Under the pieces are notes generated by a model, which saw only the letters and a program-made list of their open reading frames with translations, did not search any database and was not told where the DNA came from. DNA of 64,000 nucleotides. Source: an uncultured Candidatus Marinamargulisbacteria bacterium (lineage in GTDB: Bacteria > Margulisbacteria > Riflemargulisbacteria > GWF2-35-9 > CAYUBI01). Shown in pieces: positions 5,327 to 9,542 of the stretch (positions are counted from its first letter, which is position 1; every line of letters begins with the position of its first letter). The stretch lies in NCBI GenBank assembly GCA_964443005.1, contig CAYUBI010000001.1, positions 2,901-66,900 on the forward strand. Direction: 5' to 3'. The translations under genes and the position numbers were made by a program.

Positions 5327-5616
5327 TTATCTAATCCCTTTTTTATTAAAGATATTAATATATCGTTAGAAAATAAATAAAATTGCATAATAAATTTAGG
5401 ATGTAATTTAAATTATTTTTTTGACTCTATGACCATTAAGCCATTATAGTTTGTATCCAGCACCAAAAACTGAACAGTACAAATTGACTACAGCGTAATA
5501 TAATATACAATGGAAACAGAGGTAAGCAGGAGTAACCTCGCAGAAGTAGACGGAAGTTGAATTTATTCTAATTCTGTTCTATTGTGATCTATAATATATT
5601 CAAAAGGAGCTTGGTC

Positions 5617-5886
5617 ATGCCTGTTATCTCTATGTTTTTTGGGATTATCATCAGAATCTACCATTTTGATGATGAGCAGCATCATAGCCCTCAAATACAT
5701 GTTGAGTATGCCGAATCTTCATGTGTGATTGACATAGAAACAGGAAATATACTAAAGGGAAAACTTCAGAAACGTCATTTGCGCTTAGTAGAAGCATGGA
5801 TAGAAATCCATAGAGAAGAACTGATTGCTGATTGGAATCTTGCTGTTAGCGGAGAAGAAGTTTTTAAAATTAAACCCTTGGATTAA
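5617..5886 (+). CDS. DUF4160 family protein (cassette 1)
   Basis: MPVISMFFGIIIRIYHFDDEQHHSPQIHVEY with RBS AAAGGAG. A paralog lies at 9015. Confidence 0.6.
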   Translation: MPVISMFFGIIIRIYHFDDEQHHSPQIHVEYAESSCVIDIETGNILKGKLQKRHLRLVEAWIEIHREELIADWNLAVSGEEVFKIKPLD

Positions 5887-5888
5887 TC

Positions 5889-6122
5889 ATGTTGAAAATA
5901 AAATCTGTTGTCTCAATTTCAAATCACGAAATCCAAGTATCCTTTGAAAATGGTGACATGAAAAAATGTGATCTATCAAGGTATCTGAATAAAGGTATCT
6001 TTCGACAGTTACAGAATCCAAATTTATTTCGTCAGGTTAAATCAATAGATTTTGGTGTAAAGTGGCCAAATAATGCTGATTTAAGCTCAGATACGCTTCA
6101 TGCAATAGGCCATGCTCTATAA
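5889..6122 (+). CDS. DUF2442 family protein (cassette 1), 2 nt downstream of its DUF4160 partner
   Basis: Paralogous to 9291..9542 and 12838..13074 (the ...RGIF+QLQ...WPN.ADL motif). Confidence 0.6.
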   Translation: MLKIKSVVSISNHEIQVSFENGDMKKCDLSRYLNKGIFRQLQNPNLFRQVKSIDFGVKWPNNADLSSDTLHAIGHAL

Positions 6123-6138
6123 GAATGAATGGTTTTAA

Positions 6139-6843
6139 ATGGATATTGTAAAAAAACATTTTGAAGAAGAAGCATCAGAATTTGACAAAATTATTACTCA
6201 AGTCATCCCTTATTATCCGGAAATGATAGAAAGTTTGATTTTAACAATACCATTTCATCAATCAAGCTCCATAAATGTAATTGATCTTGGTTGCGGCACA
6301 GGAACAATATCAAAATGTATAATGAATCTCTTTCCAAATGCCAATTTAACCTGTCTCGATCTTGCAGAGAATATGATTGAAATAGCAAAAATCAAGTTAG
6401 CCGGCTATTCTCGTACCCGCTTTCAATTAGGTGATTTTAGAAGTTATGAATTTGATGACAAGTATGACGTGGCAGTGTCGTCATTAGCTTTACATCATTT
6501 AGTTACAAACGATGATAAATCAACCTTTTATCGTAAAATATATACCTCACTTAATCCCGGCGGAATATTCTTAAATGCGGATGTAGTCCTTGGATCAAGT
6601 GACCATATCCAGTCCATTTATATTGATAAATGGAAACAGTTCATGACTAAGTTTTTTTCTGAGAGCGAAATTAATAATCGCTGGCTTGCTAAATACCGAG
6701 AAGAGGATCATCCCGCTAAACTGTTAGATCAACTCACCTGGCTTGTTGATCTTGGATTTGTTGAAGTTGATATCGTCTGGAAGTATTTCAATTTCTCAGT
6801 TTACAGTGGGATGAAACCTACAAAAAATAAAAAAAATCTATGA
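6139..6843 (+). CDS. Class I SAM-dependent methyltransferase
   Basis: VIDLGCGTGTIS is motif I. An acidic motif II follows later, with YDVAVSSLALHHL. Confidence 0.6.
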   Translation: MDIVKKHFEEEASEFDKIITQVIPYYPEMIESLILTIPFHQSSSINVIDLGCGTGTISKCIMNLFPNANLTCLDLAENMIEIAKIKLAGYSRTRFQLGDFRSYEFDDKYDVAVSSLALHHLVTNDDKSTFYRKIYTSLNPGGIFLNADVVLGSSDHIQSIYIDKWKQFMTKFFSESEINNRWLAKYREEDHPAKLLDQLTWLVDLGFVEVDIVWKYFNFSVYSGMKPTKNKKNL

Positions 6844-6992
6844 TCATGCTCTGAATCGAATTCATGTAAAATATTGATGGTGGAAGTAAAGGGAAGTAGG
6901 AGTAACTCGGCGAAAGTAGACGGAAGTTGGTATTGTATTAATTCTATTCTAAAAGGAATATACTAGGGTAGTAGAATATAAGGAGGTCAGTG

Positions 6993-7043
6993 ATGCCAAC
7001 AATCAGTATGTTTTTTGGAATAATAATCCGAATGTATTTATGA
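6993..7043 (+). pseudogene. Truncated DUF4160 N-terminal stub of 16 codons (MPTISMFFGIIIRMYL*) with full upstream leader; its stop overlaps the rsgA ATG (ATGA)
   Basis: About 97% nucleotide identity to 8452..8608. RBS AAGGAGG is present. It could function as a leader peptide. Confidence 0.5.
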
Positions 7044-8119
7044 CAGATTCTATTGATTTAGCAACTTACGGGTTTGATAACTATTTTACAAGGCAACTGT
7101 CAGATTCCTCTGAGATGAATGCCGCCAGAGTCGTTTCCCAGCATCATGATTTGTATCAGGTTTTAGGTCGATACGGTGCGATGCAGGCTCGGGTTGCAGG
7201 TCGGTTGATGCATGAGGCCAAAACCGTTGCCGATTATCCAGCGGTAGGAGATTGGGTCATAGTTGATCGTGAGAACGATGAACATGGAGACGGAATAATT
7301 AATCAGGTACTGACACGTCGATCAATATTGACTCGATTAGCTGCTGGTACTGGTAAGAAAAATCAAATTATCGCGGCAAATATTGATGTATTGTTCATAT
7401 GTATGTCTCTGAATCTGGACTATAATCTGCGGCGACTGGAACGATATTTGTCTATAGCTTGGGATAGCGGGGCAGAACCTGTTGTAATCCTTACAAAATC
7501 AGACCTTTGCGATTCCTTATCTAAAAGGCTTGTAGAAGTAGAAGCGGTAGCTCCTGGGGTGGGCATTATTGTCACATCAAGTGTCAATGAGGATGGTATT
7601 CAAGGACTAGTTCCCTACCTCACTCCACGCCGAACAATCGCATTTATTGGTTCGTCCGGTGTAGGAAAATCAACACTTATCAATCGACTGTTGGGCAGTG
7701 ATATATTACATACACTTGAAACTCGCAATGATGACAAAGGGCGACATGCCACCACTAATCGTCAGCTTATAATGCTGCCTGATAGTGTTATGGTAATTGA
7801 TACGCCAGGAATGCGTGAGATTCATTTGGATACTGCGGATCTTGGGCAGGTATTCACTGACATAGAGCAATTAGCTACTAGTTGCAAATTCCAAGATTGT
7901 ACCCATAATTCGGAACCTGGATGTATGGTGAAAAAGGCAATTAATATCGGGGAACTATCAATTAAACGACTTGAAAGTTATCTAAAGCTTCAGAAAGAAT
8001 TAGGCTATGAAGGACTTAGCTCTAGGCAACTTGAAGGAAAAAAGATTCGCAATATGTTTGGGAGCAAAGGCCAGATGAAACAGGCCATGAACGATGTGAA
8101 GAAGAAGCAACACTTTTAA
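7040..8119 (+). CDS. rsgA: Ribosome small-subunit-dependent GTPase A (circularly permuted GTPase)
   Basis: Order G4 TKSDL, then G1 GSSGVGKSTLINRL, then G3 DTPG. C-terminal zinc finger CKFQDCTHNSEPGC. N-terminal OB region. Confidence 0.75.
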   Translation: MTDSIDLATYGFDNYFTRQLSDSSEMNAARVVSQHHDLYQVLGRYGAMQARVAGRLMHEAKTVADYPAVGDWVIVDRENDEHGDGIINQVLTRRSILTRLAAGTGKKNQIIAANIDVLFICMSLNLDYNLRRLERYLSIAWDSGAEPVVILTKSDLCDSLSKRLVEVEAVAPGVGIIVTSSVNEDGIQGLVPYLTPRRTIAFIGSSGVGKSTLINRLLGSDILHTLETRNDDKGRHATTNRQLIMLPDSVMVIDTPGMREIHLDTADLGQVFTDIEQLATSCKFQDCTHNSEPGCMVKKAINIGELSIKRLESYLKLQKELGYEGLSSRQLEGKKIRNMFGSKGQMKQAMNDVKKKQHF

Positions 8120-8340: not shown

Positions 8341-8395
8341 GCCCTCGTAGCTCAGTTGGATAGAGCCAAGGTTTCCTAAACCTTAACTCCACGTC
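8341..8395 (+). pseudogene. Truncated tRNA-Arg(CCU)-like fragment (acceptor 5' half, D-arm and anticodon arm intact; T-arm and 3' acceptor missing)
   Basis: GCCCTCGTAGCTCAGTTGGATAGAGCCAAGGTTTCCTAAACCTT is near-identical to the 5' two-thirds of the tRNA at 8712. Confidence 0.45.
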
Positions 8396-8561
8396 AATGA
8401 AAGTCAATCAGAAGTAAGGATTCATTCAATTCCAGTTAAATTTCGATAGCTGAAGTAAAGGGAAGCAGGAGTAACTCGGCGAAAGTAGACGGAAGTTGGT
8501 GTTGTATTAATTCTATTCTAAAAGGAATATAATAGGGTAGTAGAATATAAGGAGGCCAGTG

Positions 8562-8660
8562 ATGCCAGCAATCAGTATGTTTTTTGGAATAATAATCCGA
8601 ATGTATTTAGGTAGAAAAGATCATAATCCTCCACATGAAGACAGTCAGCTGGTTAGATAG
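8562..8660 (+). pseudogene. Truncated DUF4160 stub of 32 codons (MPAISMFFGIIIRMYLGRKDHNPPHEDSQLVR*) with leader
   Basis: Homology to DUF4160 copy 4 runs through NPPH and then breaks. A tRNA-Arg repeat unit follows immediately. Confidence 0.5.
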
Positions 8661-8711
8661 CATTTTTTTGCATATATCGAAACACAGAACTATTATATAA
8701 TAAGTAGCATT

Positions 8712-8788
8712 GCCCTCGTAGCTCAGTTGGATAGAGCAAAGGTTTCCTAAACCTTAGGCCGCACGTTCGATTCGTGTCGGGGGCACCA
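8712..8788 (+). tRNA. tRNA-Arg (anticodon CCU), CCA encoded
   Basis: Manual cloverleaf: acceptor GCCCTCG/CGGGGGC, D-arm GCTCAGTTGGATAGAGC, anticodon stem AAGGT/ACCTT with loop TTCCTAA, T-arm GCACG TTCGATT CGTGT. Confidence 0.7.
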
Positions 8789-9014
8789 AAAAATAATCAA
8801 TCTATTTTAATCAAAAACAATCCAAAATAATAATATTATGAGAAATGACCGTTGATCTGGAACTTCAAAATAAAGCAGATATGATGGTGGTAGTAGAGGT
8901 AAGCAAGAGTAATCCGGCGGAAGTAAACAGAAGTTGACAGGTTCTATTTCTGTTCAAAAAGGAATATAATCTTTATTTAGTATTAGATCGTGTAATATTT
9001 TCAGGAGGTTACAG

Positions 9015-9281
9015 ATGCCAGCAATCAGTATGTTTTTTGGAATAATAATCCGTATGTTTGTTGGAAAAAAAGAACATAATCCTCCACATTTTCATGCATA
9101 TTATCAAGATGCAACATCTACATTTGATATTCGTAAAGGCGAATTAATAGAAGGTAATATTCCTAGGCGACAAATTAAGTTAATTGAGGCTTGGATTGAA
9201 TTACATCAGGATGAATTATTAGCAGATTGGCAATTGACTGAAAATAATGATTTACCTTTTAGTATTGAGCCTTTACGATGA
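9015..9281 (+). CDS. DUF4160 family protein (cassette 4)
   Basis: MPAISMFFGIIIRMFVGKKEHNPPHFHAYYQD... with RBS AGGAGG and the conserved leader upstream. Confidence 0.6.
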   Translation: MPAISMFFGIIIRMFVGKKEHNPPHFHAYYQDATSTFDIRKGELIEGNIPRRQIKLIEAWIELHQDELLADWQLTENNDLPFSIEPLR

Positions 9282-9290
9282 GGAGGTTAT

Positions 9291-9542
9291 ATGTACATTG
9301 GAATTAAGGCTGTAAAACCGTTATCAGATTATAAGTTATTATTGACCTTTAAAAATGATGAAGTTCGCGAATTTGATATGTCTGGGTATTTGAATCGTGG
9401 TATTTTTAAACAGCTACAGGACCAACAACTATTTCGCAGAGTAAGAGTAAATTTTGACTTTCTTGAGTGGCCTAATGGTGCAGACTTTGACCCTGAAGGG
9501 CTTTATGAAGAGAGTCAATCTGTTGTAGTGAAAGTCAATTAG
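9291..9542 (+). CDS. DUF2442 family protein (cassette 4)
   Basis: RBS GAGGAGG. Paralog of 5889..6122. Confidence 0.6.
   Translation: MYIGIKAVKPLSDYKLLLTFKNDEVREFDMSGYLNRGIFKQLQDQQLFRRVRVNFDFLEWPNGADFDPEGLYEESQSVVVKVN

Follow-up and report, generated by a model that had tools for sequence, protein, structure and literature searches.

The subject of this report is a 64-kb stretch of DNA from an uncultured Candidatus Marinamargulisbacteria bacterium, called the window below, and within it a cluster of small operons that pair a DUF4160 gene with a DUF2442 gene. By sequence, the region consists of five paralogous operons of the dhiTA toxin-antitoxin (TA) family: two are intact and three are without the toxin gene, two of these surviving as stubs and one as an orphan antitoxin. 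The first four units, c1 to c4 in order, open with copies of the same 5' module. How did such an array come about? The explanation that we favor, with moderate confidence, is that a dhiTA array took shape through duplication, conversion, and deletion, that the module is a promoter/operator, and that one eroded unit was co-opted to express the housekeeping gene rsgA.

The family itself is not new. An earlier note on this DNA had described the DUF4160-DUF2442 pair as having no established function, a statement that is outdated. In Dickeya dadantii 3937, the pair has been validated as the type II TA system dhiTA, in which DhiT is the DUF4160 protein, DhiA is the DUF2442 protein, the toxin gene comes first, and the two genes are cotranscribed (PMC8198452). 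The DhiT toxin is neutralized by the antitoxin DhiA, and the dhiTA promoter is repressed by about 50% with DhiA and by 70 to 99% with the DhiTA complex (PMC8198452). In a survey from 2025, DUF4160 is classed as a toxin/effector domain without a confident structural homologue (PMC12065111). The pairs of the window are members of dhiTA by sequence; toxicity, neutralization, and autoregulation are demonstrated properties of the Dickeya system only. What is new, then, is a further set of members and, before them, a putative lineage-specific regulatory region.

The two intact operons of the earlier note are confirmed by Pfam, with DUF4160 assigned to 5617-5886 and 9015-9281 and DUF2442 to 5889-6122 and 9291-9542. 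So is its orphan DUF2442 behind mgtA, a domain at about 12844-13074 in an open reading frame (ORF) that overlaps the end of mgtA (E 8e-12). All of these domains score above the Pfam gathering cutoffs (23 bits for PF13711, DUF4160; 23.9 bits for PF10387, DUF2442), with 77.9 and 87.4 bits for DUF4160 and 36.0, 62.9, and, for the orphan, 45.7 bits for DUF2442. The genes are these:

5617-5886 (+), DUF4160 DhiT-type toxin of c1 (Pfam E 6.8e-22), with Gln at His25.
5889-6122 (+), DUF2442 DhiA-type antitoxin of c1 (Pfam E 8e-09).
9015-9281 (+), DUF4160 toxin of c4 (Pfam E 7e-25; AlphaFold model pLDDT 95).
9291-9542 (+), DUF2442 antitoxin of c4 (Pfam E 3.4e-17).
12844-13074 (+), orphan DUF2442, unit 5 (Pfam E 7.9e-12; residues 104-175 of the overlapping ORF).

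In both pairs the toxin comes first, separated from the antitoxin by 2 nucleotides (nt) in c1 (5886 to 5889) and by 9 nt in c4 (9281 to 9291), and this toxin-first, close-spaced, two-gene layout is identical in all related loci. The c1 and c4 toxins are old paralogues with 43% amino acid identity, and the c1 toxin clusters at at least 90% identity with a Margulisiibacteriota protein. An alignment of 50 sequences brings out the motif H21-x2-P24-H25-x-H27 in DUF4160, and c4 is the sole toxin copy of the window in which this conserved His motif is complete. Because Gln takes the place of the nearly invariant His25 in c1, a residue kept in all close relatives (L005, L008, L024, L025, and L027), the c1 toxin may be attenuated. 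The H-x-H part of the motif also gave rise to the idea that DUF4160 is an HUH single-strand DNA endonuclease that mobilizes cassettes, which was rejected: the fold lends it no support, and there are no sequence relatives in the PDB. As for the orphan antitoxin, it is 54% identical to that of c4 and is without its first 4 to 5 codons or so, its ribosome-binding site (RBS), and its toxin.

What precedes these genes? Read 5' to 3', the module consists of a -10-like hexamer with an ATG, two repeats called R1 and R2, a T-rich TTCTA/TTCTG/TTCTA stretch, a TATAAT-like hexamer, a stretch of 16 to 44 nt, and the RBS. R1 is GAAGTAGAGGTAAG-like and R2 GAAGTAGACGGAAG-like in an alignment of six full leader copies, namely, the four of the window and one each from the related loci L005 and L015. 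Both are purine-rich direct repeats of 15 to 17 nt with the consensus GAAGTAGAsGGnAAG. The copies in the window, with the promoter-like sequence before the first, are as follows:

5484-5511 (+), sigma-70-like promoter TTGACT-16-TACAAT upstream of the c1 leader (10 of 12 consensus matches).
5511-5616 (+), module copy 1: R1 from 5513, R2 from 5543, T-rich stretch 5566-5581, TATAAT 5590-5595, RBS 5605-5609.
6853-6992 (+), module copy 2: R1 from 6883, R2 from 6913, TATACT 6959-6964, AGGAGG RBS 6981-6986.
8386-8561 (+), a "junction" sequence (8386-8449) and module copy 3: R1 from 8452, R2 from 8482, TATAAT 8528-8533, RBS 8550-8555.
8888-9014 (+), module copy 4: R1 from 8890, R2 from 8920, TATAAT 8965-8970, RBS 9003-9008.

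Outside c1, -10-like hexamers likewise stand 1 to 13 nt upstream of R1. In six of the six full copies, R1 and R2 are spaced by 30 nt and the start of R2 lies 45 to 47 nt from the -10 box; the T-rich stretch covers the -35 position. Between the -10 box and the ATG there are anywhere from 16 to 44 nt, with the RBS 5 to 8 nt before the ATG. Spacing that is rigid upstream of the -10 box and loose downstream of it points to a promoter with upstream protein-binding sites, not to an RNA element linked to translation.

The earlier note had further claimed that nucleotide conservation among the units is concentrated in this 5' module, and careful alignment bears this out. Between c1 and c4, identity is 77% in the leader core, 69% over codons 1 to 16, 55% over the rest of DUF4160, and 58% over DUF2442, so that the module is better conserved than the genes. 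A 71-nt noncoding core is present in four copies within 3.4 kb (5511-5581, 6881-6951, 8450-8520, and 8888-8958), and the repeat finder likewise returns four copies of an 87-nt stretch that takes in the RBS and the first codons. A sub-pattern of the core has 6 matches against a chance expectation of 0.10, and a profile built from the six leaders detects no additional copy elsewhere in the window. The near-identity of copies 2 and 3 is real, but its length had been understated, being 182 nt at 93% identity (6859-7040 versus 8428-8609) and not about 157 nt. Copy 4 does share the 5' coding stretch, with 44 of the 48 nt of the first 16 codons common with copy 3, including a 38-nt identical run. The cargo behind each module also differs as described (the full gene, rsgA, a tRNA), each feature lying at or within a few bases of where it had been placed.

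Outside the window, the module is rare. Scans of 185,579 species genomes with the leader pattern returned one genuine match, in an uncultured Candidatus Marinamargulisbacteria metagenome genome (L005, also returned as L011), and there were two in metagenome contigs, one being a Hainich groundwater contig of the same sequence (L014, duplicating L006) and the other L015. Viral contigs gave zero genuine matches to the pattern; the remaining matches, with no DUF4160 nearby, were discarded as chance. The module copies in L005 and L015 are 75 to 89% identical and precede different genes. Homologous TA cassettes in other organisms, at 76 to 91% amino acid identity, come without the module and without a tRNA. 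By these comparisons, the module is restricted to a narrow clade.

What might keep the module so constant? Its consensus boxes and spacing suggest a promoter and operator retained by selection together with short gene conversion. Purifying selection on its DNA, plus short conversion tracts that homogenize paralogous modules, would make the modules more similar than the genes. The selected function would likeliest be as sites for an autorepressing antitoxin or complex, or for another regulator; since autoregulation is established for the family, a DhiA or DhiTA repressor is the most obvious candidate ligand. Five points weigh against this interpretation. (i) R1 and R2 lie at about -43 to -87 from the predicted transcription start, upstream of where type II antitoxins usually bind. 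(ii) With an identity of just 36% between the c1 and c4 antitoxins, there is no obvious reason to expect a common operator. (iii) In L015 the module precedes an acetyltransferase gene without any TA pair, which suggests that its upkeep is not strictly tied to such a pair. (iv) A second -10-like box and an ATG just 5' of R1 are kept in five of the six copies, and the repeats are possibly transcribed too. (v) The module is kept in four of four truncated units, which is more regular than random deletion predicts and calls for selection or some other mechanism.

The fourth point leads to a different view of the function of the module, one that leaves the origin of the array untouched: the leader could work as RNA or as a small coding frame, within a long 5' untranslated region (UTR) that starts from the -10-like box upstream of R1. 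Variants include binding of a regulator (e.g., of the CsrA type, at GGA motifs), pairing with the T-rich stretch, or a leader peptide of 16 to 36 codons that controls the operon. Every copy has the -10-like hexamer 1 to 13 nt upstream of R1, c1 has the strong TTGACT-16-TACAAT, and an ATG followed by an open frame stands at the same place in five of the six. There are 3 to 7 GGA motifs per leader, and the substitutions are mostly G/A transitions, so the strand stays purine-rich. An 11-bp hairpin between R2 and the T-rich stretch is predicted in c1 and L015, with a shorter stem of the same elements in c4. However, the hairpin is broken in c2/c3, c4, and L005 and has zero covariation, and Rfam 15 gives zero leader matches at the gathering threshold or at E values up to 10. 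Single-sequence folding z-scores of the leaders run from -0.5 to +1.9, and the consensus fold reaches just -3.7 kcal/mol, its sole compensatory pair being due to c2 and c3, which are nearly identical. The small frame has substitutions without third-position bias, L/S/P, E/V, and G/R changes among them, and its stop position is not conserved. A small ORF was therefore rejected as the primary function despite the ATG in five of six copies, its substitution pattern being unlike that of coding sequence and its stop variable. Finally, spacing is conserved toward the downstream -10 box and not toward the RBS or the ATG. An RNA-level or coding role for the leader is thus unlikely, if the most substantial of the alternatives considered here.

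The promoter/operator reading also bears on one joint of the array, that between a toxin stub and rsgA. The stubs and the gene are listed here:

6993-7043 (+), 16-codon DUF4160 stub of c2, MPTISMFFGIIIRMYL and stop, whose TGA overlaps the ATG of rsgA (ATGA).
7040-8119 (+), rsgA, ribosome small-subunit GTPase (Pfam RsgA_GTPase E 3.6e-45).
8562-8660 (+), DUF4160 stub of c3: 25 homologous codons (to 8636), then unrelated sequence to the stop.

The 16-codon stub is present as the earlier note described it. Its second stub, of 32 codons, exists as an ORF, but the DUF4160 homology within it stops at 8636, codon 25; up to there it has 96% amino acid identity to the intact first toxin of L005. The 18 nt before the rsgA ATG contain no separate RBS for this gene, and the stub carries AAGGAGG. 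Together with the overlap of the stub TGA and the rsgA ATG, this suggests translational coupling, so that the leftover promoter and stub probably drive both transcription and coupled translation of rsgA. Expression of rsgA through module 2 would account for the retention of that module.

How was the joint made? The rsgA ATG marks the exact end of the c2 module, and from 7036 onward the sequence is homologous to rsgA orthologues. These orthologues, in Candidatus Margulisbacteria metagenome genomes, are 69 to 73% identical, and their contexts (L019 to L023) contain no module, TA pair, or tRNA-Arg. Together with the Margulisiibacteriota match of the c1 toxin and the leader match in L005, the orthologues place the window in the Margulisbacteria, close to the Marinamargulisbacteria. 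With a slash at the joint, the window reads gaatgtattt/ATGACAG, c3 reads gaatgtattt/AGGTAG, and the native upstream of rsgA in L019 reads ggtgattt/ATGACTG. The ATTTA common to both sides points to an illegitimate, microhomology-mediated deletion of the rest of a c3-like pair. The breakpoints all differ: codon 16 at c2/rsgA, codon 25 in c3, before the RBS in L015, after the T-rich tail in L005, and, in the orphan antitoxin, about codon 5, fused to the mgtA stop. Such scattered endpoints argue against site-specific recombination.

The earlier note had proposed repeated recombination at the module, as an attC-like cassette junction or a conversion hot spot. The part that concerns exchange between copies holds up. 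The 38-nt run of identical 5' coding sequence is common to c2, c3, and c4, and the L005 orthologue of c3 differs from it at four synonymous sites. The variants GGAATAATAATC and GGNATTATCAT are swapped between the orthologous pairs of the two genomes, the window and L005. The c1 toxin is 94% identical to the second L005 toxin; the c1 antitoxin is 58% identical to that of the same pair and 75% to that of L025. The shared run and the mismatch between toxin and antitoxin identities argue for short-tract gene conversion and shuffling between paralogues. To see whether c2, the putative driver of rsgA, is under stronger constraint than c3, ancestral states were counted: c3 is ancestral at 7 sites and c2 at 5.

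The attC-like junction finds no such support and was abandoned: there is no hairpin in the module and no recombinase in the window, each unit has promoter-like boxes of its own, the element is at the 5' end, and its limits are variable, with junctions scattered. A domain scan of every non-nested ORF of at least 90 amino acids in the window, 64 kb of a 90-kb contig, found no integrase, transposase, resolvase, or serine/tyrosine recombinase domain, in line with the earlier note; the recombination proteins present are RuvA, RuvC, and RecR only. The repeat finder returned no inverted repeats in the module, and its single-stranded DNA folds on both strands reach -2.4 to -10.8 kcal/mol with z-scores of -1.7 to +0.35, no better than shuffled sequence.

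Absent from the earlier note, and interleaved with the array, are four tRNA-Arg(CCU)-derived copies, each with a promoter-like upstream region and two of them 5' fragments, as well as a 167-nt direct repeat:

8147-8304 (+), tRNA-type promoter region (8147-8192) and tRNA-Arg fragment a (8197-8206 plus 8290-8304, about tRNA positions 4-25).
8340-8385 (+), tRNA-Arg(CCU) fragment b, matching the functional gene at 98% identity over tRNA positions 1-45 (the 5' half up to and including the anticodon arm).
8712-8788 (+), tRNA-Arg(CCU) copy 1, functional-looking (ARAGORN; Rfam 65.9 bits).
10055-10131 (+), tRNA-Arg(CCU) copy 2, degenerate (Rfam 40.2 bits; ARAGORN calls a tRNA).
8676-8842 (+), first copy of the 167-nt direct repeat, which spans a tRNA promoter, the tRNA, and a further 54 nt; the second copy, 10019-10185, is 96% identical.

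In the degenerate copy, position 8, universally conserved, is a C, and the acceptor stem contains two mismatches; this copy is probably a pseudogene. Enclosed by the 167-nt repeats is a 1343-nt unit with module 4, the c4 pair, and what is left of a GyrI-like gene and a TfoX_N gene. Fragment b and the junction downstream of it are also found in L005 and L015. Module copy 2 includes the 3' part of the junction, a sequence that in copy 3, L005, and L015 comes after the tRNA fragment. Could the sequence past tRNA position 45 be a decayed tRNA 3' half? That candidate was rejected: there is just a weak CACGT-centered resemblance, so the site is treated as a recombination joint. Fragment a is split by a hairpin-forming insertion of 83 nt (8207-8289) with imperfect terminal inverted repeats, TCCCGAGAAATC and TCCCGAAATTC. 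It is GC-richer and sits precisely between the G and the C of CTCGTAG/CTCAG in the tRNA-Arg remnant; the 155-nt stretch around it (8186-8340) folds strongly (-49.7 kcal/mol). The insertion may be a miniature inverted-repeat element; it has no second copy in the window and no Rfam match.

This layout, in which module, stub, promoter, and tRNA positions 1 to 45 are followed by junction, module, stub, promoter, and tRNA, resembles the joint of a tandem duplication, and c2 and c3, at 93 to 98% identity, are consistent with a recent one. Perhaps, then, the array reflects ordinary paralogy and decay, the stubs being random leftovers and the module nothing special. Yet c1 and c4, with their toxins at 43%, share module cores that are 77% identical with exact repeat spacing, the module of L005 and L015 is conserved before different genes, and every truncated unit has kept it. 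This account is very unlikely to suffice.

The arrangements in related loci are instructive about the tRNA. L005 has the same tRNA 5' half and junction, then the module, followed by a complete toxin gene orthologous to stub c3 and its antitoxin gene; behind these come R2 alone, a c1-like pair, R2 with the T-rich tail, about 450 nt, and rpsF. In L015, a lake metagenome contig, tRNA 5' half, junction, and module stand directly before a GNAT acetyltransferase gene. L024 and L025/L026 carry c1-like cassettes without the purine-rich repeats, preceded by tRNA positions 30-41 or 30-44; 3' of the cassette there is an intact tRNA-Arg in L024 and tRNA positions 1-13 in L025/L026. In L008 a c1-like pair is followed by tRNA-Arg(CCU), behind which 17 nt of the tRNA 3' end are repeated. 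The homology to tRNA stops at positions 41 to 45 in every case. These arrangements suggest that the association of TA pairs with tRNA-Arg is old in this lineage. Individual loci have features of their own. In the L008 tRNA region (1728-1938), the repeat, tcgtgtcgagggcacca, lies about 115 nt past the tRNA-Arg(CCU) and looks like the classical footprint of an integrated, now tiny element. In L024 the tRNA promoter and tRNA-Arg are separated by an insertion of about 60 nt (1085-1145) in which CAGCTGA-like repeats abound.

Cassettes of this type also occur elsewhere. The P0010 toxin is 91% identical to the first toxin of L005 and belongs to a different, GC-richer organism with neither module nor tRNA on its contigs. 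The closest DUF4160-DUF2442 cassettes of other GC-richer organisms (L001 and L028 to L031) stand in TA islands (ParE, HicAB) beside a DUF1016/SNase gene, which suggests that the cassettes spread horizontally without the module.

Do these loci betray a cassette platform? On this proposal, the module (or R2) and the tRNA-Arg 5' half would be attachment sites for a recombinase encoded elsewhere, and small promoter-bearing cassettes would be inserted or exchanged by site-specific recombination, in an integron-like fashion or as the mirror image of integration at tRNA 3' ends. The module does stay while the cargo differs (rsgA, a tRNA, the intact pair of L005, the acetyltransferase of L015), R2 alone recurs at the boundary after each of the two tandem pairs of L005, and a series of promoter-bearing tRNA-Arg 5' fragments lies upstream of the intact tRNA. 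The cassette flanks in L025/L026, with tRNA positions 30-44 at left and 1-13 at right, are as expected from a circular intermediate, and the classical 17-nt repeat of L008 indicates that tRNA-Arg is an integration target in this lineage. Against the proposal, besides the missing recombinase domain in the window and a module devoid of inverted repeats and single-stranded hairpins, both the 5' and 3' limits of the module vary from copy to copy, and the single joint that can be compared with an orthologue, that of rsgA, shows microhomology. Every tRNA copy in the window, and that of L015, includes the upstream promoter, a pattern consistent with tandem duplication or unequal crossing-over. That three genomes have homologous versions of the tRNA fragment, junction, and module argues for one old event and not recurrent ones. 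Because the order GyrI-like, TfoX_N, tRNA is conserved, a pair of flanking deletions would explain the tRNA fragments of L025 equally well. Overall, such a platform is quite unlikely. Cassette capture through the tRNA 5' half, whether homology driven or site specific, is decidedly unlikely, and still less probable is that the tRNA-Arg(CCU) locus is an active capture site served by a recombinase encoded elsewhere. In that last model, the resident tRNA would recombine with small circular units, each made up of a module, its cargo, a tRNA promoter, and tRNA positions 1-45; the old 5' half would be moved upstream each time, which would give rise to the series of promoter-bearing 5' fragments, and the purine-rich repeats would double as promoter and accessory recombination sites. 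To our knowledge, capture through a tRNA 5' half would be the mirror image of all described tRNA-targeting integrases.

The account of duplication, conversion, and deletion needs no such machinery. The array would have been built through segmental duplication involving the tRNA-containing repeats and then eroded by illegitimate, microhomology-mediated deletions with differing endpoints. One eroded unit would have been co-opted, lending its promoter, RBS, and 16-codon stub to rsgA. Certain features remain odd: the module is present in all truncated units, R2 stands at the cassette boundaries of L005, and the tRNA remnants are 5' and promoter bearing, the reverse of classical integration. Unequal crossing-over between the tRNA repeats of 46 to 167 nt, along with selection on a useful promoter, could account for them. 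Decay is apparent elsewhere in the same stretch, in the GyrI-like/TfoX_N remnants, the degenerate tRNA copy 2, and the split tRNA fragment. Because the family is an already validated one and the array is best explained by duplication, conversion, and decay of the normal kind, a new recombination system should no longer be claimed.

Other genes within and next to the array can be described briefly:

6139-6843 (+), SAM-dependent methyltransferase gene between units 1 and 2 (Pfam Methyltransf_25 E 4e-20).
9577-9837 (+), GyrI-like and TfoX_N gene remnants (tblastn 82% over 34 amino acids, plus further pieces).
10247-12844 (+), mgtA-type P-type ATPase (ORF; its stop codon abuts the orphan antitoxin).

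The methyltransferase gene begins 17 nt past the c1 antitoxin. The GyrI-like remnant has 82% amino acid identity to the first 34 residues of the L025 gene; both remnants have collapsed through internal deletions and keep the order in which the intact genes stand before the tRNA fragment of L025. The mgtA label is based on a reading of the translation and on the presence in L020, near rsgA, of an 891-amino-acid, Pfam-annotated P-type ATPase, and not on a direct homology test. At 12844-12861, the frame of the orphan antitoxin is open backwards across the last 300 nt of mgtA, in another frame, and its earliest plausible start is a TTG 15 nt past the mgtA stop, so expression would require reinitiation after mgtA. 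Upstream of the array are a SET-domain (lysine methyltransferase-like) protein (3765-4421, -) and a 395-amino-acid protein of repeated MgtE_N-like units (2512-3699, +). SET domains are unusual in bacteria.

The array is of interest in three respects. (i) The module is lineage specific and sharply defined, and it gives the DhiTA regulators, which are poorly understood, a specific candidate operator. (ii) The stub before rsgA would be a clean natural case of a toxin stub recycled as a promoter and coupled upstream reading frame. (iii) The series of tRNA-Arg 5' fragments documents the evolution of a hot spot in an uncultivated phylum.

How does the array compare with known systems? Integron arrays, built on attI/attC and IntI and including attC clusters without an integrase, likewise consist of small units in the same orientation with a repeated boundary and differing cargo, and TA cassettes are common in chromosomal integrons. 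The array differs in that the window has no IntI or other recombinase and no imperfect palindrome, hairpin, or GTTRRRY core pair. Its element, with promoter-like boxes, is 5' of the unit, whereas integron cassettes are promoterless with attC 3', and its boundaries are not at a fixed position. Genomic islands formed at tRNA genes by tyrosine integrases resemble it more in content: mobile-type cargo, such as TA pairs and pseudogenes, and partial tRNA copies cluster at a tRNA gene, and the L008 17-nt repeat of a tRNA 3' end is of this kind. In the window, however, the partial copies stand upstream of the intact gene, bear promoters, and correspond to the tRNA 5' part (positions 1-45 and about 4-25); an integrase is absent; and the repeats, at 46 to 167 nt, are long enough for homologous or unequal crossing-over.

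The closest counterpart is dhiTA of Dickeya, with which the array shares both Pfam families, the toxin-first order, the tight two-gene operon, and an upstream promoter region. It differs in having five clustered copies, three of them eroded, and a rigid lineage-specific module, which Dickeya is not known to have and which close homologues elsewhere are without. The decay of the array follows the general course of TA erosion, in which the toxin is lost first, the orphan antitoxin stays, and a leftover promoter drives a neighbor. What sets it apart is the ATGA overlap of a 16-codon stub with rsgA, an essential-type housekeeping gene, which would be an unusually clean instance of such reuse.

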